This document shows, piece after piece, positions 1,000-20,005 of a stretch of DNA of 64,000 nucleotides. The notes beneath the pieces were generated by a model, which was not told the origin of the DNA, ran no database searches, and saw nothing but the letters and a program-made list of their open reading frames with translations. A program made the translations under genes and the position numbers. Numbering within the stretch: the first letter of the stretch is position 1; the number at the start of each line of letters is the position of its first letter. Where the stretch lies: positions 1-64,000 of the IMG/VR virus record IMGVR_UViG_3300037722_000240. One strand, 5' to 3'. This DNA comes from a virus. Lineage: Duplodnaviria; Caudoviricetes.

Positions 1000-2508
1000 A
1001 TGAAAAGAGGGTTTGAAATTATTGATTCTGTAGGTATAGAATTAGAGTTTTCTAATATTAATAGAGAAGATACTAAATTTTTAACGGATATGAAAAAGTT
1101 TCTTCCTGGATTTCAAGTTAAGCATGATGCTTCTTGTGAAAGCAAAGTACTAACTTTTGCTGGACAAGAAGTTGAGGCTAATGCTAAGACTCTAAAACAA
1201 ATGGCACCTTATTTTCTTAATACAGTAATTGGTGGAGAAGTAGCATCCCCAGTGATTGATTCATGTTCTCCAGAATGGGTAGATAATATTTTTTCTCTTT
1301 GTGAATTACTAAGACAACACGGAGAATTGGAAGATACTGTAAGAGATAGTTTCCACGTTCATGTTAATATCTCCGAACAAGCCCCTCTATTTGTTTTGAA
1401 AAATCTTCTAAAACTTTCAGCCGCATATGAAGCAGTAATGTTTAGACTTGGAGGAATGGGTCGAAATAATAGAGGAGAAGAAAATTTCTTCTGTTATCAA
1501 AGGCCTTATCTTGGAAATGGACCTCCAGTAGTTATGATTGGTAAAGAAAATTATCCTATTCTATGTTACGAGGATTTGATGCAAAGTAAGGACAAAGAAG
1601 AGTTTTTTGGAAGATATGGGGATTCATATTATCATTTTGACCATAGAGCAAGATATGTAACACAGAGATATATGGTAACAAATTTTTACTCAATATTAAG
1701 TATGGGCTCTTTTGAATTTCGTACAGCTAATAAAACACTTAATCCTAGATATATTATTGCATGGACTAACTTTTGTAAGGCTTTTGTACAAAAAGCTTGG
1801 GTAGGTCCATCTTTGTTAGATGAAATTACTTTTGAAATGCCTCTCTATAAAGGCAATGTAATAAGTATGGATGAATTTTTGAACGCCTTGAAATTTTTAC
1901 CTTTATTAGAGCCTTCAACTATTGATATTTTATTAGAAATTTGGGAATCCAGTCCTACACCAAGATTTGATAACAAATGGAGGTATACTCATCTTAGAGA
2001 CCCAACAAAATTTTCAACTATAATGTATGCGCCACATACAATAAGTGGTAAAATAGAAAAACCAGTTTTTGAGGATATTCATAATCAAGTTCCTGAAATA
2101 AGAGTTCCTGTAGAAGAATTAGGTATAGGAATTGAATGGGATGCACCAGTTGTTAATATTAACAATGAGAATCAAAGAGAAGTTATTCAAGATAGACTTT
2201 GGAATGTATCTTTTAATGGCGGCAATCAATTTTATGATATTAGAGGTCTTATGGACTTTGCAGTTATTGATAATCATATAATGTATGGCCCTATAAGTTA
2301 TAATGATATAATTTTTTATATAGAAATGCGGCTTAGAGTTAATGATGCTGGACGAGTTTTCTTATATTCTTGGCAACATCGGGATAATATTGATGTGGAA
2401 GGTCAATTTGAAATGTTTGGTATGCATATTAATTTTCCCGATGCTTATAATAGAGTAACAGATTACATACAGGACGTTTGGCCCGAATTTTACGAGGAAA
2501 ACATGTAA
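1000..2508 (+). CDS. putative amidoligase (glutamine-synthetase/GCS-like COOH-NH2 ligase, Amidoligase_2-type)
   Basis: Motifs VGIELEF, HDASC, GGEVASPV, SFHVHVN, FEFRT; strong RBS. Confidence 0.8.
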   Translation: MKRGFEIIDSVGIELEFSNINREDTKFLTDMKKFLPGFQVKHDASCESKVLTFAGQEVEANAKTLKQMAPYFLNTVIGGEVASPVIDSCSPEWVDNIFSLCELLRQHGELEDTVRDSFHVHVNISEQAPLFVLKNLLKLSAAYEAVMFRLGGMGRNNRGEENFFCYQRPYLGNGPPVVMIGKENYPILCYEDLMQSKDKEEFFGRYGDSYYHFDHRARYVTQRYMVTNFYSILSMGSFEFRTANKTLNPRYIIAWTNFCKAFVQKAWVGPSLLDEITFEMPLYKGNVISMDEFLNALKFLPLLEPSTIDILLEIWESSPTPRFDNKWRYTHLRDPTKFSTIMYAPHTISGKIEKPVFEDIHNQVPEIRVPVEELGIGIEWDAPVVNINNENQREVIQDRLWNVSFNGGNQFYDIRGLMDFAVIDNHIMYGPISYNDIIFYIEMRLRVNDAGRVFLYSWQHRDNIDVEGQFEMFGMHINFPDAYNRVTDYIQDVWPEFYEENM

Positions 2509-3786
2509 ATGTGCCAACTAACAATGTTCGATACATCAACTGAGACAAAATTAACCAGACACTTAGTTAGACCATTAACTGAAATGAATATTCTTGGAAT
2601 TAATGCGAGTGCCAATCATGATGGTTTTGGATATATGTTATTTGAGAATCCTGGAGAAATTTTTAAAGATGGGGTTTCGGCTACACATTATTGGACTAAA
2701 GAATTTTCTAAATTTTATAAAAAATATGAAAATCCTAATGGTATATATCATGTAAGAGCAGCAAGTGGATTTGGAGTAAATAAAGTTGTAAAAGATGAAA
2801 ATGCCCATCCATTTAAGCATGGAAATATTGTAGTTGCTCATAATGGAACTCTTAGAGAGAAAGAGGATTATTTTCTTTCAGACAGGGAACTTGATATTTC
2901 AAACTTATATAATAATTTGTGGATTGATAGTGAGCGGTTTTGTTTTGCCCTTAATGAAATTTGTGGAGATGATTTACTAGAAGCAAAACATATTGAACAA
3001 GCCTATGATATGTTTACTGATATATTTGCCTTTTTAATCTATGATATTAGACAGCCTGAAAAGGTATTTATAGTTAGAGGTAAAACAAAGCAATTACATT
3101 GTCTAACTGTTTACAGTGGTAAGAAAAGAATTGGTATGATAATTAATACAGGTCAATGGGAATTACTATATTTAGCAAAAATGATAAAATATACTCTTGG
3201 TGAATATTTGAATATAAATAAATTGTCTGTAGGAGTTGCAATATTAGAAGAAGAGGGTATTTATGAATATACCATTGGTAGTTATAATATAGGAAAGCCT
3301 GTACGTAGGATTAAAGAAACTTCTTCTACTGATTTTAAGAAACCCGTTGCTGATGTACAACCTTCTTGGAAAAAGTCTAGCTTTCAACCAGAATTTAATG
3401 ATATAAATACTCCTACCCACAATAAACAAACTATTCAAGCTTATTGTCTCATTGCTGAGCTTTGTCATGAAATGAACTTATCTCTTAAGGAGATTTGGAT
3501 ACTATCCGAAATATTCAATGGTAAGAATATATGCTTATATAATCTACAGGAAATGGAGGATTTTCTAGAATTATTGAAAGAAATAGATAACGATGCTACT
3601 TATGCAGGAAAAATGAAGGAATGGGCTAATCTAAAAGAAGAATTTAAAATGAGTGCTTTAGAGTTTTATAAACAAACTGATATTCATTTTCCTTATTTAT
3701 TGGCATCTAGAAAGGATATTAAATCTGTTGGAGTTAAAATTAGAAAACTAATTAAAAACGCCAAAAAGGAGGAAAACAAAAAGTGA
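2509..3786 (+). CDS. class II (Ntn) glutamine amidotransferase
   Basis: N-terminal M-C nucleophile; HDGFG, HVRAAS, NAHPF, HNGTL, DSE motifs. Confidence 0.85.
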   Translation: MCQLTMFDTSTETKLTRHLVRPLTEMNILGINASANHDGFGYMLFENPGEIFKDGVSATHYWTKEFSKFYKKYENPNGIYHVRAASGFGVNKVVKDENAHPFKHGNIVVAHNGTLREKEDYFLSDRELDISNLYNNLWIDSERFCFALNEICGDDLLEAKHIEQAYDMFTDIFAFLIYDIRQPEKVFIVRGKTKQLHCLTVYSGKKRIGMIINTGQWELLYLAKMIKYTLGEYLNINKLSVGVAILEEEGIYEYTIGSYNIGKPVRRIKETSSTDFKKPVADVQPSWKKSSFQPEFNDINTPTHNKQTIQAYCLIAELCHEMNLSLKEIWILSEIFNGKNICLYNLQEMEDFLELLKEIDNDATYAGKMKEWANLKEEFKMSALEFYKQTDIHFPYLLASRKDIKSVGVKIRKLIKNAKKEENKK

Positions 3787-5355: not shown

Positions 5356-6670
5356 TTTCGGTATAGATGATATTAGTATAATAACTTTTGCTGGAGAGGA
5401 AGCAGCTTCTAGAGAAATAACATCAAATCTTGATGGTATAGAAACTTGGGGGACTCCCCATATGTTTAAAGGTAAACTCTCTATGATTCTTTTACATCAA
5501 TATAACGACAGAATGATGTTGACTGTAAATTCAAAATTTGCGGACGATTCTTTAGGAGGAAGAGGCCCTGATATTCAAGAAGAACTAAAAAGAATAGTGG
5601 TAGATGCCGTTATTGACTTTGAAACAAGAAGAAACTTTATTCCCAAAATTTTAATTTTAGCGGATGATTTTACTCCATTATTTTATGCAAAAGAGAAGAA
5701 TCAAAAATTCTACCTTGATATAGATGAATCAGACCTCAAAAATTATAACTTTGAACCCATAACTATTTCAGCACTTAAAAGTCTAATAGATTCTTGTAAT
5801 ACCACTGCTTTAGTATGGTGTGTAGGAAATGTTGTTATGAAAAATTTCATTAGTTGGCCCTCCAATATCTTAGGTGCATTAGTTTTAGATGCCTATTGTG
5901 ATAAAGCAATTCCTCTATCTTCTGTCAGAGGTAAAGTGCTTACTGAAATTACTAGAGACGGTTTTGGATTTTTGGTTTCCTATTTGTGGAGATTTCTTTA
6001 TCCAGATAAGAGTTTAAATCATGACCAAATTAGTCTTATATATGAACAATTTAGAAAATCAACAGGTGGCTCTAAAAATGCTTTACCACATATTCCTTTA
6101 ACTTGGAATGATGAGGACATTGAGGGTATTAATATCACAAGAATTAAGAGAGATATTGAAGTATTTACATCTAATAAAGGTAAAAACGTAGATATAGGTA
6201 CATCTAAAGAAATTGTAAAAGTCCATAATCCCGTTTTTGATAACGAGGAATTAAATACAGCTCTTGATATGATTAATGATGGACTTAGAAAAAGCATGAA
6301 AAAGAGTATTACAAAAGATACTGGCAGACCTAGCTATAATCTTTCTGAAATAGTATCACAGTCTGCTACAGAGAATCAAATATATTTAAATGATGAAACC
6401 TATAATCAAGTTCACGATGTAAAGATTGATTGTGATATTGAAGTTTCCAGTTGTATATTACTAAAACAAAATATAGCTGTTGGTCAGCTTGTTTATGGAG
6501 TATTAGAGATAATAGTTCCTGCGGGTATTATAGCAGAGGAGGAAAGAGAAAATATTGAAAAACAATTAGGAGAATCAAAGGGCATTCCTTTGATAATTTT
6601 TGAAGAAAAAGATACGGAATCTATAGCTAAACACTTTGCAGAAATTCTAGAAGAGCAGGAGGAAGAATAA
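5345..6670 (+). CDS. hypothetical protein (441 aa) coupled to the RuvB-like gene
   Basis: Long ORF with GGAG RBS, overlapping the upstream gene; no family recognised. Confidence 0.8.
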   Translation: MSSSFGIDDISIITFAGEEAASREITSNLDGIETWGTPHMFKGKLSMILLHQYNDRMMLTVNSKFADDSLGGRGPDIQEELKRIVVDAVIDFETRRNFIPKILILADDFTPLFYAKEKNQKFYLDIDESDLKNYNFEPITISALKSLIDSCNTTALVWCVGNVVMKNFISWPSNILGALVLDAYCDKAIPLSSVRGKVLTEITRDGFGFLVSYLWRFLYPDKSLNHDQISLIYEQFRKSTGGSKNALPHIPLTWNDEDIEGINITRIKRDIEVFTSNKGKNVDIGTSKEIVKVHNPVFDNEELNTALDMINDGLRKSMKKSITKDTGRPSYNLSEIVSQSATENQIYLNDETYNQVHDVKIDCDIEVSSCILLKQNIAVGQLVYGVLEIIVPAGIIAEEERENIEKQLGESKGIPLIIFEEKDTESIAKHFAEILEEQEEE

Positions 6671-14033: not shown

Positions 14034-14425
14034 TTACTCTACAAGAACTAGCCGATAAATATCTCTATCTAAAAAGAGAAAGAGGAAAAGAAGTAAATGA
14101 ACTACAAAAATTTCTACAAACACATAGATACCTTTTTTCTACAAATCGCACCACAGATGCTCATGAATTTACTTATACTGAGAGAATTGTTGAGGGAATA
14201 AGTGTTGATATTTATTGGAGTCCTAGAAGCGGGGTTATTAACATTGTTACAGGAACTCTTTATTCTGAGTTTGGGCACTATATAGTTGAAAGAGATTCTC
14301 CACCAGACCCGGAGAAGATAAAGAAAGCTATTCAACATAAGATTAATAGTATGTCTGATAATTATAAGTTTGATATTAAAAAGATAAGAGATTCGATTTC
14401 TATACTAAAGAAAGCAGGATTATAA
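14030..14425 (+). CDS. hypothetical protein
   Basis: AGGAG RBS; coupled. Confidence 0.7.
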   Translation: MITLQELADKYLYLKRERGKEVNELQKFLQTHRYLFSTNRTTDAHEFTYTERIVEGISVDIYWSPRSGVINIVTGTLYSEFGHYIVERDSPPDPEKIKKAIQHKINSMSDNYKFDIKKIRDSISILKKAGL

Positions 14426-14426
14426 A

Positions 14427-14684
14427 ATGTACTTTGAGGTAAAAGAGATAATGACTGAAAAACCTATTCTTTTTATCTCTGCTTCTTCTAAACGACAAGC
14501 TTTTAAGTTTGCAGATAATTTTCTACTTTATAACGAGCGTCATTGGAAAAACCATCGTATGGTTCAAATTACTAAGAAAAAGTTTGATAAATTTGCTAAT
14601 CGTTCTTATGGTATAATTTATGAAGATTCACCTAAAGCCTACCTTGGTTATTATCTTAATAGACGATATGATGGAGAAAATTAA
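14427..14684 (+). CDS. hypothetical protein (N-terminus shared with 13788-14033)
   Basis: MYFEVKEIMTEKPILFI. Confidence 0.7.
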   Translation: MYFEVKEIMTEKPILFISASSKRQAFKFADNFLLYNERHWKNHRMVQITKKKFDKFANRSYGIIYEDSPKAYLGYYLNRRYDGEN

Positions 14685-14686
14685 TA

Positions 14687-15040
14687 ATGAGTTACGCTAG
14701 AAAAAGTACATCAGATTTATATTTAGTAGGAACTACAGGGCATGGTGGTAACATTATTTATGAATGTATGTCATGTGAATTAATGGATAAAGTACAACAA
14801 GAATCTATATTCCAAGCTGGAATATTTTACGAAATATATCCCACATATATTATGCACAATCATACTGCCATGATGCGTCATTTAAGACATCATATGCTTG
14901 CCGGCCATCAAGTTAATTATGAAACAATAGTTAGAGTATTGAGTGAGTATTATGATAAAGTTTTTCCAAAGGAAAGTAAATACATTTCAGATGAATATTC
15001 CAAGTTATTTGCTCAGTTTGATTATGAACAAGAGGAGTAG
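14687..15040 (+). CDS. hypothetical protein, possible C2H2-type metal site
   Basis: ECMSC...HNH...MRHLRHH; GGAG RBS. Confidence 0.65.
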   Translation: MSYARKSTSDLYLVGTTGHGGNIIYECMSCELMDKVQQESIFQAGIFYEIYPTYIMHNHTAMMRHLRHHMLAGHQVNYETIVRVLSEYYDKVFPKESKYISDEYSKLFAQFDYEQEE

Positions 15041-15048
15041 TACGAGCA

Positions 15049-15246
15049 ATGAAACTGAATAAACTAAAGTTCAGGATGCTATGTCCAAACTGTCATGCTT
15101 ATGTTTATATTCATTCTGTAGGCATTAATATAAATAGTTTACAGAATGGGAATATTGGTATTAGTTATGACTGTCCAACATGTAAATCAACTCTACAAAT
15201 ACAATTACAAAGTAGTGAAATAATACAAAGTAGTGAAATAAAATAA
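15049..15246 (+). CDS. hypothetical Zn-ribbon protein
   Basis: CPNC...CPTC; GAGGAG RBS. Confidence 0.7.
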   Translation: MKLNKLKFRMLCPNCHAYVYIHSVGININSLQNGNIGISYDCPTCKSTLQIQLQSSEIIQSSEIK

Positions 15247-15252
15247 TTATCT

Positions 15253-15301
15253 TAATTTTTATACACAACCTGTTACTCACGATTCAAAACTAATTTTGTT
15301 T
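15253..15301 (+). promoter_or_regulatory. TAATT-N14-GTTAC-N18-TTTGTTT motif, copy 3
   Basis: TAATT 15253, GTTAC 15272, TTTGTTT 15295; AAGGAG RBS and ATG 15329 follow. Confidence 0.65.
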
Positions 15302-15328
15302 CACACAAATAAGGAGAGAAACTAAACT

Positions 15329-15508
15329 ATGATGCCACAACAAGATTACGAGCGAGAATTTAGTAAAATAATAAATATGTCAGTACATACTAATAATCAC
15401 ACTTATATAACATATAAACTTGTTAGATTTGCTGTATCTATTTTAATGCATATACTAAGAGAACGATATAACGATATTTTGAGGAAAACTAACGATGCCA
15501 CAAACTAA
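15329..15508 (+). CDS. small hypothetical protein (59 aa, not in ORF track)
   Basis: AAGGAG RBS, ATG 15329, TAA 15506-15508 (MMPQQDYEREF...DATN). Confidence 0.6.
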   Translation: MMPQQDYEREFSKIINMSVHTNNHTYITYKLVRFAVSILMHILRERYNDILRKTNDATN

Positions 15509-15752
15509 CGATACTACACAATTACTACAATATCAATTATTTCTATGTACAGATTCTTTTATAACTAGACTAGATTATACTACTGCTAAAGAAATGTGGA
15601 AAGTATGTATACGTAATAATTATAATTTTATAGAATGGAAAGAGTTTTATACAGAACAAGACGCAGAAGAATATGCTCAAAGCCATCTCCGTAGATATAC
15701 TCATTGGATTTGTTTTAGTTCAGATACTAAGCAGGAAATATTTAGGTCGTAA
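15495..15752 (+). CDS. hypothetical protein
   Basis: GAGG RBS; overlaps upstream ORF end. Confidence 0.6.
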   Translation: MPQTNDTTQLLQYQLFLCTDSFITRLDYTTAKEMWKVCIRNNYNFIEWKEFYTEQDAEEYAQSHLRRYTHWICFSSDTKQEIFRS

Positions 15753-15769
15753 TATGAGTTCATTAATTC

Positions 15770-15818
15770 TAATTTATATAGCGTCGCGGTTACTTGAAAA
15801 CACTAACTTACTTTGTTT
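15770..15818 (+). promoter_or_regulatory. TAATT-N14-GTTAC-N18-TTTGTTT motif, copy 4
   Basis: TAATT 15770, GTTAC 15789, TTTGTTT 15812; lies just after the stop at 15752. Confidence 0.65.
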
Positions 15819-15902
15819 TACTGAAAGATTCATAAAAAAAAACAAACACCGGCATAAAGTATTGTCGGTGTATTTTTTTGTCCAGGAATCTGGTACAGTG
15901 GT

Positions 15903-16139
15903 ATGGTGGTACCTAAGGGGATTGTATTAGGAGAACCAAGGGGCGGTTATGGTACAGGTACTCTTTTAGTGCGAGAACCGGGTATCCGTATATTGGCCCA
16001 CCGGACACCAGGAATATTAATCCCCGGTTCAAATAAGATTTACGTTATAAAACATAGATTTATCTATACAATTGGATACTTGACCTGGTCCACATACCTG
16101 GCGTATAATCAAGCTGAGGCAGGCCCGCGTCAATTTTGA
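15903..16139 (+). CDS. possible hypothetical protein
   Basis: 78-aa ORF, weak RBS, Gly/Pro-rich. Confidence 0.35.
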   Translation: MVVPKGIVLGEPRGGYGTGTLLVREPGIRILAHRTPGILIPGSNKIYVIKHRFIYTIGYLTWSTYLAYNQAEAGPRQF

Positions 16140-16208
16140 CTGGTACGTGGGCGTGCTTTTTGTTTACAGGATGCGGTTGGTGCCGTTCAATAGCCAAGGA
16201 GAATCCAT

Positions 16209-16649
16209 ATGGCAAAGAATAGAAAGGCCCAAGCCGCAGGTACTGACGAGGCCGCTGACGCCCCAGTTAGTGCCGCTGGTTCCATCATGCAACAGATAAT
16301 TGATGGAACCGTAAGTCAACTGGTGTTTATCATCAACCCTGCACCGTTTATCCGTGAGGACTCGGTGGAAGAGGGTGAAATGCACCGTGGTAATACTCCG
16401 TGGTTGATTCACTTGCCTGCACTTGGAGTTACGGTACAGGCATTGAACCACAACGGAGAACCCAAGGTCGGATATTATGACTATCGGGAGGCGATGGACC
16501 ACGCTCGCCAGATTTGGAACCGATGTGTCGAGGACCCGTCAATTATTGAGGGTCTCCGTACCGAGTCAGCAAGTTATTGGCCTGGAACCGTTCATTCAGA
16601 CGGTAAGATTATGTTCAGGTACATCGACGTTCAGCCTCTCAATTTGTAG
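16209..16649 (+). CDS. hypothetical protein
   Basis: AAGGAG RBS, protein-like composition, GC-richer codons. Confidence 0.8.
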   Translation: MAKNRKAQAAGTDEAADAPVSAAGSIMQQIIDGTVSQLVFIINPAPFIREDSVEEGEMHRGNTPWLIHLPALGVTVQALNHNGEPKVGYYDYREAMDHARQIWNRCVEDPSIIEGLRTESASYWPGTVHSDGKIMFRYIDVQPLNL

Positions 16650-16720
16650 TCTGAACGTCTAGTATGTACCGCATCCTGTAAACTCCTCTTTCGCTTGGGT
16701 TCAGAAAAAGGAGAAATCAC

Positions 16721-16906
16721 ATGAACCCCAATTTAGAATACCGAACCAGATTTATGATTCAAGGCGATTACTACGAAGAATTACCCAGGAGGCGGTCCCA
16801 ATTCAAGGTAATTGGTTCACATCAAACCGATGTGCCTATTGAAAAGAAAGCGGAATGTACCGATAATCCGCATCGAGACGATAGACCACAAACTCGGTTC
16901 AAATAA
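16721..16906 (+). CDS. small hypothetical protein
   Basis: AAAGGAG RBS. Confidence 0.55.
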   Translation: MNPNLEYRTRFMIQGDYYEELPRRRSQFKVIGSHQTDVPIEKKAECTDNPHRDDRPQTRFK

Positions 16907-16921
16907 AGGAAAAGTGTACCA

Positions 16922-17425
16922 ATGGCAAAGAAAGCTACAAATGGTAAAGTAACTGCACCAATTCTTCCTCAGCCGCGTACAATATCACAATCGCCGCTGT
17001 ATACCCTTGTACCAACAATTAGGGACCAGTTTCGGCGAGTTGAACTTCGAGATGCGAATGGTGCGGTCAAGGCTATCTTGATTGACCAGGACCAGAAGAA
17101 GGAACAAAATGTTGGTGAAGCGAATCTGAACTTCCTTTGTGGTTTAATTCTAGGCGCTACTGGCGGTCGAGGGGACAAACCCGATGGTGCATGTATTTGG
17201 GTTGCTGGTAACGCTACCCAAATGAAGAATTTGAACGATTACATTCTGTACATGGAACCACGAACGCGTGGAACCATTTTGGAAGCGCCGGTATCGAGGT
17301 TTCTGAGTATCGTTTCGGCCCGTGCCGCCGTCTTGGGACCATCATTGGAGAAGTACCCTCCAACGGTTAAGGTGCGTGATGTAAGTATTGGTGCGGAAGA
17401 AGAGGAGGTCGAAGTCGTTTTATAA
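16922..17425 (+). CDS. hypothetical protein
   Basis: AAAGGA RBS; acidic C-terminus. Confidence 0.8.
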   Translation: MAKKATNGKVTAPILPQPRTISQSPLYTLVPTIRDQFRRVELRDANGAVKAILIDQDQKKEQNVGEANLNFLCGLILGATGGRGDKPDGACIWVAGNATQMKNLNDYILYMEPRTRGTILEAPVSRFLSIVSARAAVLGPSLEKYPPTVKVRDVSIGAEEEEVEVVL

Positions 17426-17450
17426 GCTGTAGCACCCTCACCACAATAAG

Positions 17451-17655
17451 TGAGCGGTACGGAGGTCAACATGACTCTGTACCGCTCATTAGTGGGTTAA
17501 GGAGAGGTTATAAAGATGGTTCGGAAATCAATCGAACATTAGGAGGGCACCTATTGCCCGTCTTTATAACCTATCCTATCTACATTGTACCATAGGAGCT
17601 AATCCCCACACCGGGTAGGATACCCATATTAGTTTAGCCAGGTTACAATGTAGAT
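17451..17655 (+). ncRNA. candidate structured RNA domains upstream of the tRNA
   Basis: Three consecutive long stems: 17451-17488 (17 bp, one bulge), 17505-17572 (13-15 bp closing two inner hairpins), 17578-17655 (12 bp perfect, branched interior). Confidence 0.5.
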
Positions 17656-17658
17656 TCT

Positions 17659-17731
17659 GGGCCCATAGCTCAGGGGTTAGAGCAGCCGGCTCATAACCGG
17701 TAGGTCGTAGGTTCAATTCCTACTGGGCCCA
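17659..17731 (+). tRNA. tRNA with CAU anticodon, most likely tRNA-Ile2 (lysidine type); elongator Met not excluded; CCA not encoded
   Basis: Acceptor GGGCCCA/TGGGCCC, D-arm AGCTCAG-GGGTT-AGAGC, anticodon loop CTCATAA (CAT 17692-17694), T-arm GTAGG-TTCAATT-CCTAC, discriminator A; lacks the initiator C1-A72 mismatch. Confidence 0.92.
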
Positions 17732-17734
17732 CTA

Positions 17735-17989
17735 CACCAGTATTACACCGTGGAACAACCATTTATAATGGTAACCGGTAAGATACTGGTGGATATAGAC
17801 GCTCTGCCAAGCGGATTGACTGAGTACCACTCCGTCGGCACCAAGATAGCAACACCATAGACAGTAAGTGTACCACTTATGTTGCCTTGGTAGCCTACCC
17901 CAACATATGGGTAGCATTACCGGGTGTTATAGGAAGTAGAATAGAGGGTATATAGAGTACCAAGGTGCTTTGGCAGAGCGCCTTTTTTT
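17735..17989 (+). ncRNA. candidate structured RNA downstream of the tRNA, ending in a U-tract
   Basis: CACCAGTAT/ATACTGGTG (17735-17791); CGCTCTGCCAA 17800-17810 pairs with TTGGCAGAGCG 17970-17980 around nested stems; T7 at 17983-17989. Confidence 0.55.
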
Positions 17990-18014
17990 ATTAATCTTTA
18001 TGGTTCAGATGTCC

Positions 18015-18038
18015 TAATTTCTACAGACAACCCGTTAC
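18015..18038 (+). promoter_or_regulatory. TAATT-N14-GTTAC motif, copy 5
   Basis: TAATT 18015, GTTAC 18034; just after the U-tract. Confidence 0.6.
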
Positions 18039-18394
18039 CGGTGGTGCGAACCAGGGTTTAGGGGTTCGCTGATATCAACTTACGATACTGGTGCAGATAT
18101 CGCTTTAGTGTGGGAACCGGCTGTTTGGGACGGTGGTACCTAGGGCGTATACCAAGTTGTACCATATTTGTGGTGCGCGTACTAGTGAGATACTGGTTCC
18201 CATACTCTTCCATTTTAAAGGCGTCACGCTCAGACGAGCGTATAGTACAGGAACCGGAAAATCTGGTAGTATACCTGGTAGTTTCGATATGATTGGTTAT
18301 TGAAATACAACGTACCATATAGTATACTAAGATGATGGAAAGTGTGGGGTCTGTGTACCACAAAAACCGGTTCGATTACCAGGAGGATGGTGCA

Positions 18395-18907
18395 ATGCGT
18401 AAGAAACGAATAGCCATACGCGAAACTGGTACAGAGTTTGAAACTGGGGTCGTTTTTAGTCCAAGCTGGGACGACTTCAAAGCAGTGTTAGGCAGACTTT
18501 GGGAATTGGGCATGGAACCAGAAATCATGCCATATAACACATCAATCCAAGAAACATTGAGAAACCGGTCTATAGCCAACAAAGTGGTTCCTGATATGTT
18601 GGCTAAGGCAGAGTACCGAAAACTTCACGAAAATGCACCTTTTGTGGTACAAGCTGGTCTATGGGTTATTGCATGTTACAATTACAAATGGTGCAGAGGC
18701 CCTTATCCTGGCACCATAAAGAAATATAGGGCACCAAAGCGGAAGCCTGTAATGGAGTTTCGGTGCCCTTACTGTGGTAACATATGGACACCGAACCCCC
18801 GGTTCAAGAATAGAAAGGTGATACTATCACAATTTGCTTCTTGGATTGCGAACCACAAATCGTGCAATTCCGTTACTCACATTGAGTTAGCACCAGGAGT
18901 AGTATAA
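18395..18907 (+). CDS. hypothetical protein with Zn-finger (track start 18332; RBS favours 18395)
   Basis: AGGAGG before ATG 18395; CPYCG...H..C motif. Confidence 0.75.
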   Translation: MRKKRIAIRETGTEFETGVVFSPSWDDFKAVLGRLWELGMEPEIMPYNTSIQETLRNRSIANKVVPDMLAKAEYRKLHENAPFVVQAGLWVIACYNYKWCRGPYPGTIKKYRAPKRKPVMEFRCPYCGNIWTPNPRFKNRKVILSQFASWIANHKSCNSVTHIELAPGVV

Positions 18908-19389
18908 TGAATATCTTCTATTTGGACCAGGAACTAGACAAGATAGCTGAGTACCACGCCGATAGGCATGTAATCAAAATGCCGGTAGAAAGTGCACAAA
19001 TGTGTAGCACCGTAGCAAGAGAACGGTGCGGGATTGATGTTGGTTATAAATCAGTGTTTATCAACCATCCTTGTACCAGATGGACGGCGGCAAGCCGAGA
19101 AAACTGGTCCTGGAACCTATCTCTTGCAACATGGTTGTGTGCTGAGTATACGCACCGCTGGGGCAATATACATGCCACAACTGACGTTATTGTGGAACTT
19201 ACTGAGCACAAGAACCAGATTTTGAAACATCTACCAGATGTTCCTTTCACTGAACCACCAAAAGTGGTTTCTGCTGAATTCAAGCACTTGCCAACAGTGG
19301 ACGCGTACCGGCAATACTATATTGTAGTGAAACAACGACTTCACAAGTGGACCAATCGACCTATACCAGAGTGGATTCCAAATGAATGA
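18907..19389 (+). CDS. pyrimidine-dimer DNA glycosylase / endonuclease V-like phage protein
   Basis: MNIFYLD...AEYHADRHVIKMPVESAQMCST, NHPCTRW, AYRQYY, KWTNRPIPEW. Confidence 0.75.
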   Translation: MNIFYLDQELDKIAEYHADRHVIKMPVESAQMCSTVARERCGIDVGYKSVFINHPCTRWTAASRENWSWNLSLATWLCAEYTHRWGNIHATTDVIVELTEHKNQILKHLPDVPFTEPPKVVSAEFKHLPTVDAYRQYYIVVKQRLHKWTNRPIPEWIPNE

Positions 19390-19474
19390 CGATACGGTCC
19401 GTAAGTTAGTTTGGTGGTTAACGTCTCAACCTTGGTGGCCTGAGATATGGGAATATCTAAGGAGGAACCAATGA
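19382..19474 (+). CDS. possible 30-aa Trp-rich peptide (not in ORF track)
   Basis: MNDDTVRKLVWWLTSQPWWPEIWEYLRRNQ; overlaps both neighbours as in coupled genes. Confidence 0.4.
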   Translation: MNDDTVRKLVWWLTSQPWWPEIWEYLRRNQ

Positions 19475-19680
19475 GTCTGATTGAAGACCCAGAACAACAC
19501 GACTGTACCGGCGAAGTCCTAGAGATACCGGAGGATTATTATGATTACAAAGATAATGATGGACCGTACCGAGAGGACGATATTCGAGAATGGAGTTCCG
19601 GTAGCGAATCTGTCCGAAGAGGTAGTGATGACGTGTCCAGAGTGTTTGGCACCAGCGGTACGGGTCATCACCCTGCATGA
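19471..19680 (+). CDS. acidic hypothetical protein (RBS favours start 19471)
   Basis: AAGGAGG RBS; overlaps the next ORF. Confidence 0.45.
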   Translation: MSLIEDPEQHDCTGEVLEIPEDYYDYKDNDGPYREDDIREWSSGSESVRRGSDDVSRVFGTSGTGHHPA

Positions 19681-20005
19681 TAAGATATACTACGGCCATT
19701 CTGGTACAGGGGGTGATTTCGGCCATATGTGCGAAGCTGACCCGATAGATGCACCAGACGCTATTACCATTCTGGAATACGGAGAACCGCGGTACCTAGG
19801 ATGGGAGCACCACGAGTATGAATCCGAACCAGAACCAGGAAAGCCAGAAGAATATCCTGATTGGGTTCAAGATTTTCTGGATAGTATAGATAGTGATGAC
19901 CCATTCGATGACCCAGATTATCGGGACCAGTTAAACAATCCTGATAATTGGATTTCTGGTTTAGATGATGAAGATGGTCCCATTAGCCCAATAGGGAATA
20001 TATGA
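19541..20005 (+). CDS. hypothetical Zn-binding acidic protein (start uncertain)
   Basis: CPEC...H..C motif, Asp/Glu-rich tail. Confidence 0.65.
   Translation: MITKIMMDRTERTIFENGVPVANLSEEVVMTCPECLAPAVRVITLHDKIYYGHSGTGGDFGHMCEADPIDAPDAITILEYGEPRYLGWEHHEYESEPEPGKPEEYPDWVQDFLDSIDSDDPFDDPDYRDQLNNPDNWISGLDDEDGPISPIGNI

Follow-up and report, generated by a model that had tools for sequence, protein, structure and literature searches.

Gene content and layout of the locus

The window, by which we mean the whole stretch of 64,000 nucleotides analysed here, belongs to a 77.7-kb record of an uncultured virus whose genes include a portal, a terminase, a family-A DNA polymerase and an amidoligase/GATase. 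The tRNA described below was the sole match in the INPHARED phage collection and the terminase has a single relative, with 26% identity, so this phage has no cultured relative. Amidoligase and glutamine-amidotransferase-like genes are located at the left end of the window (1000-3786), and L002, a contig of a related lineage, likewise carries a GATase at positions 1-338. Such genes are often members of phage DNA base-hypermodification clusters. The G+C content is about 32% (30-36%) over most of the window and reaches 40-49% in an island at 16-23 kb; a second jump, to 54-58%, is found at 27-29 kb. The left junction of the island, near 16 kb, is seen in independent assemblies, including contig L018, which spans positions 14422-19925 with 100% identity. 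The G+C shift is thus not due to a chimera.

The element studied here lies inside this island, between a 167-aa ORF (16922-17425) and an ORF for a Zn-ribbon protein, the annotated start of which is at 18332. The latter was called as a 191-aa protein, and its true start is probably at 18395, since the -10 box of a promoter (18323-18328) abuts the ATG at 18332, every homologue has its first residue at M22, and the ATG at 18395 is preceded by a GGAGG. With a start at 18395, the noncoding gap is about 970 nt long.

The hairpins, the tRNA and the element described next are on the plus strand. Three hairpins precede the tRNA, namely D1 (17451-17488, fold z -9.0), D2 (17500-17577, z -5.2) and D3 (17578-17655, z -3.5). 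D1 is kept in L002 with compensatory changes; the L002 copy bears a T5 run, whereas the copy in the window has lost its T-run. A match of the FinP family to the L002 hairpin (25 bits for a threshold of 45) was considered as noise. The tRNA itself (17659-17732) has a CAU anticodon, corresponding to Met or Ile2, and no encoded CCA; it was identified by ARAGORN and by Rfam (RF00005, 74 bits). The tRNA model gave no match to D2, D3 or the interior of the element at E up to 10, so that a decayed tRNA as their origin is unsupported. Two nucleotides past the tRNA begins hairpin D4 (17735-17791), an inverted repeat with a folding energy of -22.8 kcal/mol and a z of -4.6, which confirms that this previously proposed hairpin is real. 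Its 3' arm is one copy, at 17782, of a 16-nt direct repeat (GATACTGGTK...ATA) that is found again at 18084 and 18189, in the regulatory region past the terminator. A promoter-like ATTACA-N16-TATAAT within D4 (17742-17769) was discarded, as such sites occur at chance level (4 found for 3.4 +/- 1.7 expected).

No sigma-70-like promoter was found between the 167-aa gene and the tRNA when the window was scanned. Given this result and the missing T-run of D1, it is plausible that a single transcript comprises the upstream gene, D1-D3, the tRNA, D4 and the element, up to position 17990. D1-D3 (17451-17655), 5' of the tRNA, are likely to be on the same transcript as the tRNA, and the element would be co-transcribed with it as well.

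The closing helix and the interior it encloses

The preliminary description of this DNA had proposed an RNA of about 190 nt, closed by an 11-bp stem and containing a set of nested helices. The closing helix and its U-tract hold as an RNA-level element of the plus strand, 3' of the tRNA: CGCTCTGCCAA (17800-17810) pairs perfectly with TTGGCAGAGCG (17970-17980) and a T7 (17983-17989) follows directly. Eight of the 11 perfect pairs are G-C pairs. With one A-C mismatch, the helix extends to 17797/17983, which makes 13 pairs in all, with arms at 17797-17810 and 17970-17983. Nine of the pairs form with a probability of 0.98-1.0, and the 5' arm pairs with a probability of about 1.0. The whole element has a folding energy of -66 kcal/mol and is more stable than shuffled sequences (z -3.5 to -3.7).

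An 11-bp inverted repeat with such a loop size is not rare by itself. The window contains 11 perfect 11-bp inverted repeats with loops of up to 200 nt, compared with 5.5 +/- 1.9 in shuffled sequences, and three of the 11 fall within 17505-17980. The T-run and the positional homologues found in relatives show that this pairing is not due to chance. A GC-rich helix followed by a U-tract of at least five residues, as expected of an intrinsic terminator, is present here as 11 perfect pairs plus two, followed without a gap by U7. The short loop of about 3-8 nt that is also expected is not found in the long-range helix, which encloses 159 nt, but it is found in an alternative local hairpin (17962-17984; plus strand, 10 pairs including G-U, -11.3 kcal/mol), which has a 3-nt loop. 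This hairpin uses the 3' arm of the closing helix and sits before the same T-run, and it was picked by the terminator scanner in the window instead of the long-range stem.

The 159-nt interior (17811-17969) has a weakly defined fold. The minimum free energy structure of the element has an ensemble frequency of 0.0014. Among the five nested helices that had been proposed, TAAGTG/CACTTA is well supported, with a pairing probability of 0.94, and GAGT/ACTC reaches 0.5-0.64. The others are weak: CTACCC/GGGTAG reaches 0.14-0.41, and neither GCACC/GGTGC (0.08) nor AACACC/GGTGTT (0.01) is likely. Relative to composition-matched shuffles, the whole element has a z of -3.7, whereas the interior folded alone has a z of only -1.33, with 32 of 300 shuffles folding equally well. 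The inner helices thus look like what chance would give, and in these folding models the excess stability of the element stems from the closing helix. The interior is also lineage-specific, as blastn comparison of the gap with the other lineages revealed no similarity outside the tRNA. Two small ORFs within the element, of 61 aa on the minus strand and 36 aa on the plus strand, showed neither a Pfam match nor conservation.

The homologous position in related lineages

Relatives were collected from homologues of the two flanking proteins and from locus searches. Eight contigs (L012 and L018-L024) belong to the same phage and show 100% identity over the region of the element. Outside it they are identical too, in coding and noncoding DNA, save for a single mismatch and, downstream of the element in L012, an 89-nt deletion; they therefore carry no information on constraint. 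The deletion (L012 1286-1288, window 19083-19171), in a contig that comes from another sample, truncates a 160-aa gene of phrog_624 with a weak resemblance to Pyr_excise. The other relatives form six lineages, whose flanking proteins are 60-70% identical to those of the window in L002/L025, 58% in L026, and 42-50% in L005-L011, L013/L014, L015/L029-L031 and L027/L028. Single-protein locus searches of viral contigs gave nothing, nor did a search with alignment A2 against viral contigs or with alignment A3 against genome contigs. Alignment A3 identified a single distant locus among viral contigs, L032, in which extra ORFs replace the element.

The seven lineages have a common gene order, with a gene of the 167-aa family, a variable noncoding stretch, a hairpin with a T-run, a TGGTWC box about 10 nt further on, a conserved region, a TTGAC-N17-TATAAT promoter and the Zn-ribbon gene. 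A GC-rich hairpin with a T-run is present at the homologous site, upstream of the conserved promoter, in seven of seven lineages. In the window, the stem of 11(+2) bp encloses 159 nt and is followed by T7. The stem has 15 bp, enclosing 131 nt, in L002 (T7), 13 bp, enclosing 32 nt, in L005 (T6), 15 bp, enclosing 18 nt, in L026 (T9), and 11 bp, enclosing 9 nt, in L014 (T8). In L015 and L027, stems of about 10-12 bp and about 10-13 bp, respectively, each enclose 6 nt and precede a T5. The stem sequences are unrelated across lineages; what is kept is the pairing and not the sequence. It had been argued that a simple terminator would not close such a branched interior. This argument is not supported, since the six other lineages have intrinsic terminators, of ordinary form or with long stems, enclosing 6-131 nt at the same position. 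Hairpins with a long stem and a large loop are common in these phages.

Two relatives allow the tRNA and the large interior to be separated. In L026, the closest tRNA-bearing relative, tRNA(CAU) is followed 6 nt on by the plain 15-bp, 18-nt-loop terminator, which indicates that the large structure is dispensable for the tRNA. Conversely, L002 has the large element and no tRNA. The interior and the tRNA are hence not linked.

L002 is the only lineage with a comparably large element. A covariance model built from the window element alone (R1) matches it end to end, with 16 bits and a rough E of 0.004. This score comes from a fully compensated closing stem, a sequence block past the 5' arm and the U-tract, whereas the inner helices are disrupted or give way to inserts that do not align. 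Compensatory changes, which had been put forward as a test of the proposed RNA, are thus observed in the terminator stem only and in none of the inner helices, in a small sample where L002 is the sole large homologue. In L002, no local hairpin precedes the T7, which leaves the long-range stem as the sole candidate for the terminator hairpin; the T-run is nevertheless conserved. The interior of L002 folded alone has a z of -3.7. It also contains, at 5482-5511, a near-consensus sigma-70 promoter (TTGATA-N18-TATAAT, 11/12), a transcript from which would be without the 5' arm of the closing stem.

The best local alignment between the two interiors (z 3.7; 2 of 200 shuffles) is a 19-nt block, GATTGACTGAGTACCACTC, at 17814-17832 on the plus strand, which is identical at 16 of 19 positions in L002 (5415-5433) and located at the same offset. 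The block includes GTACCAC, a second copy of which, at 17870, forms the tip of the TAAGTG hairpin. Its predicted helix context differs between the window and the L002 elements. The block pattern was found in no other viral contig, and three times in 596 Gb of genomes, which is at or below chance level. Among these three matches, R1 gave a 19-nt local match over the block in L035 (9 bits, E 0.16) and nothing in L036 and L037.

Past the terminator, noncoding DNA is conserved up to the next gene over 340-750 nt in six lineages (window 17990-18394; L002 5564-6000; L005 3131-3505; L014 2582-3006; L015 2641-3006; L027 3797-4546). Alignments of three and six lineages and motif counts delimit a conserved regulatory region at 17990-18299, with the boxes TGGTWC, CGTTACC (often followed by GGTACGWACC) and CTTCCATTTAAAGG, and with many GTACC/GAACC sites. 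It is followed by the sigma-70-type promoter of the downstream gene, TTGAAA-N17-TATACT (18300-18328, plus strand), which is kept in six lineages and has a GTACC in its spacer and another near +25. The sequence between the terminator and the gene has the look of an early promoter region under dense regulation. At 16-23 kb, GGTAC/GTACC is enriched about 6-fold, with 70 sites seen for about 11.6 expected, in coding and noncoding DNA. The longer GTACCAC/GTGGTAC has 16 copies in the window, 13 of which are within 15.9-21.5 kb, including an array at 21 kb, in both orientations. Copies outside the island include those at positions 250 and 708. The gap of the L005 lineage contains no GTAC and has GGTTC/GAACC instead (11 copies), a swap which suggests a co-varying DNA-recognition specificity or modification motif.

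A probable terminator with an expanded loop and the competing explanations

We consider it reasonably probable that the element is an intrinsic terminator whose loop has acquired a fast-evolving insert of lineage-specific sequence. It would be the Rho-independent terminator of a unit comprising the 167-aa gene, D1-D3, tRNA(CAU) and D4. The GC-rich helix 17797-17810/17970-17983 and the U7 would stop the host RNA polymerase just ahead of the conserved regulatory region and of the next gene's sigma-70-type promoter, which would thereby be insulated from upstream transcription. The loop would have been expanded by the insert, to 159 nt in the window and 131 nt in L002, and the insert would fold on itself well enough for the arms to meet. 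In the window, the canonical local hairpin could serve the same U-tract too. After 3' processing of the tRNA, D4 and the terminator would be left over, forming a 3' trailer about 255 nt long. The stem, the U-tract, the homology of position with terminators and the absence of a conserved interior structure are observed; we infer that termination takes place at this site, that the element is co-transcribed with the tRNA and that the insert is neutral.

Characterised terminators have stems of 7-9 bp and loops of 3-5 nt, and long stems (15 bp) make operon-end terminators resist processive antitermination (PMC10325885). The stems of 11-15 bp across this phage group fit a strong boundary terminator of this kind. 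The element resembles the long-stem operon-end terminators of the TerR type (pLS20, PMC10325885) in its GC-rich helix with an immediate U-tract at the end of a unit, in its location just before an independently regulated promoter and in a stem sequence that is free to change as long as the pairing is kept. It differs from them in that the helix encloses 159 nt where theirs enclose 3-7 nt; its termination and any resistance to antitermination are predictions. Three observations count against this explanation. An enclosure of 159 nt is far beyond the 3-5-nt loops reported (PMC10325885), so that efficient closure over such a distance would have to be assumed. The terminator scanner picked the local hairpin and not the long-range stem. 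Lastly, the two lineages with large interiors have a 19-nt block in common at an identical offset, the L002 interior being well folded in addition. The shared block and the well-folded L002 interior hint at more than neutral filler. If the terminator explanation holds, this is a cautionary case in which an expanded terminator next to a phage tRNA mimics a new ornate RNA, and the two natural examples, with 131-159 nt enclosed by the only or main hairpin before a conserved U-tract, would offer a test of the loop-size limit of termination.

The element had been compared with the large ornate RNAs encoded next to phage tRNAs and proposed as a possible new member or family. Membership in a known class of large, ornate or housekeeping RNA (GOLLD, ROOL, tmRNA, RNase P, 6S, SRP, ribozyme or riboswitch) is extremely unlikely. 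The element does adjoin a phage tRNA-Met-like gene, as do some GOLLD RNAs (bioRxiv 10.1101/2024.12.08.627333), and it is phage-encoded and next to a tRNA(CAU) gene like GOLLD and ROOL. However, GOLLD RNAs exceed 800 nt and have helices P1-P27 and a universally conserved 3' domain (bioRxiv 10.1101/2024.12.08.627333), whereas the element is only about 190 nt long and has no conserved multi-helix architecture, no covariation in its interior and no Rfam match. Rfam 15 at gathering thresholds returned the tRNA alone, without GOLLD, ROOL, ribozyme or riboswitch, and relaxing the limit to E of 10 brought no match to the GOLLD model (RF01998) either. What appeared at this limit was only noise below threshold, with L10_leader at 19.5 bits for a threshold of 44, FopS at 20 bits for 56, a mir-460 match in the window, and a Plastid-ycf2 match which is the antisense of the tRNA. 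ARAGORN detected no tmRNA, and the Rfam searches none of tmRNA, RNase P, SRP and 6S. Membership in a known class is thus refuted at the sensitivity of the Rfam covariance models. The absence of an Rfam match, the terminators at the homologous spot and the lack of excess folding in the interior also speak against a GOLLD-type or new ornate family. We regard it as unlikely that the trailer 3' of the tRNA (D4 together with the closed domain, about 190-255 nt) acts as a functional small RNA specific to this lineage. Processing of the tRNA 3' end would release this RNA, and the closing helix and the terminator would stabilise it, with the GAYTGAYTGWGUACCACUC block as the functional site, for protein binding or base pairing, and the remainder as a variable scaffold. 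A conserved short block, a variable body and a terminator is the usual layout of sRNAs, and matches what is seen here. The location directly 3' of a tRNA without encoded CCA, the homologous large element of L002 with the 16/19 block at the same offset, and the stability of the L002 interior all favour such an RNA. Regulators derived from tRNA spacers are documented (e.g. PMC9514646). On the other hand, the element and the tRNA are uncoupled, as seen in L002 and L026, the window interior has no excess structure and its inner helices are not conserved. In addition, the block is in no other viral contig, and its three chance-level genome matches carry no element under R1. Sponge RNAs derived from tRNA 3'ETS (3'ETS-leuZ) and the stable species 1/2 RNAs of the T4 tRNA cluster are existing examples of non-tRNA RNAs which lie 3' of a tRNA and end at the operon terminator. 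Like them, the trailer is predicted to be able to persist after tRNA processing; unlike them, the element also occurs without a tRNA (L002), and any accumulation or targets of the trailer would be hypothetical.

The GTACCAC within the block, which is enriched in the DNA around it in either orientation, fits a DNA site as well as an RNA site. Since the block holds this enriched motif, it may be a putative protein-binding site, at the level of either DNA or RNA. That the interior matters as DNA, through GTACCAC/GTGGTAC sites bound by a putative phage or host protein, appears quite improbable. The 21-kb repeat array and the promoter region would be marked by this site as well, the small hairpins would result from the motif being partly palindromic, and the closing stem would simply be a terminator around the sites. 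This explanation is consistent with the distribution of the motif in both orientations and its enrichment in the island, as well as with the identity of GGTGGTACCTAG between the window (18131-18142) and L002 amid diverged DNA. It also agrees with the fact that the only interior block common with L002 contains the motif in a differing predicted helix context. The copies at 17824 and 17870 form the tips of the two best-supported inner helices; however, copies in one orientation in a transcribed hairpin suit an RNA explanation just as well. The motif is also not universal, as illustrated by its replacement in the L005 lineage. A combination of these ideas, which we regard as quite improbable, is that the closing helix is both a terminator and the clamp of a tRNA-trailer sRNA whose two GUACCAC-tipped hairpins bind a phage factor that recognizes the GTACCAC/GGTACC sites of the early-region promoters and of the 21-kb array. 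If true, it would link the RNA output of the tRNA operon to the control of the neighbouring promoter, and the RNA would constitute a small lineage-restricted family, comprising the window and L002 lineages.

Returning to the intrinsic terminator, the stretch upstream of it holds, depending on the lineage, nothing, hairpins, a tRNA or extra ORFs, and is an insertion hot spot. The locus would mark a place where tRNAs, small ORFs and hairpins are inserted by related phages upstream of a fixed terminator-promoter boundary. In the L013/L014 lineage, a minimal ORF (ATG-AAG-TAA) with a strong AAGGAGG lies between the D2 hairpin and the terminator (L014 2470-2500); it may be a chance occurrence or a leader-type element.
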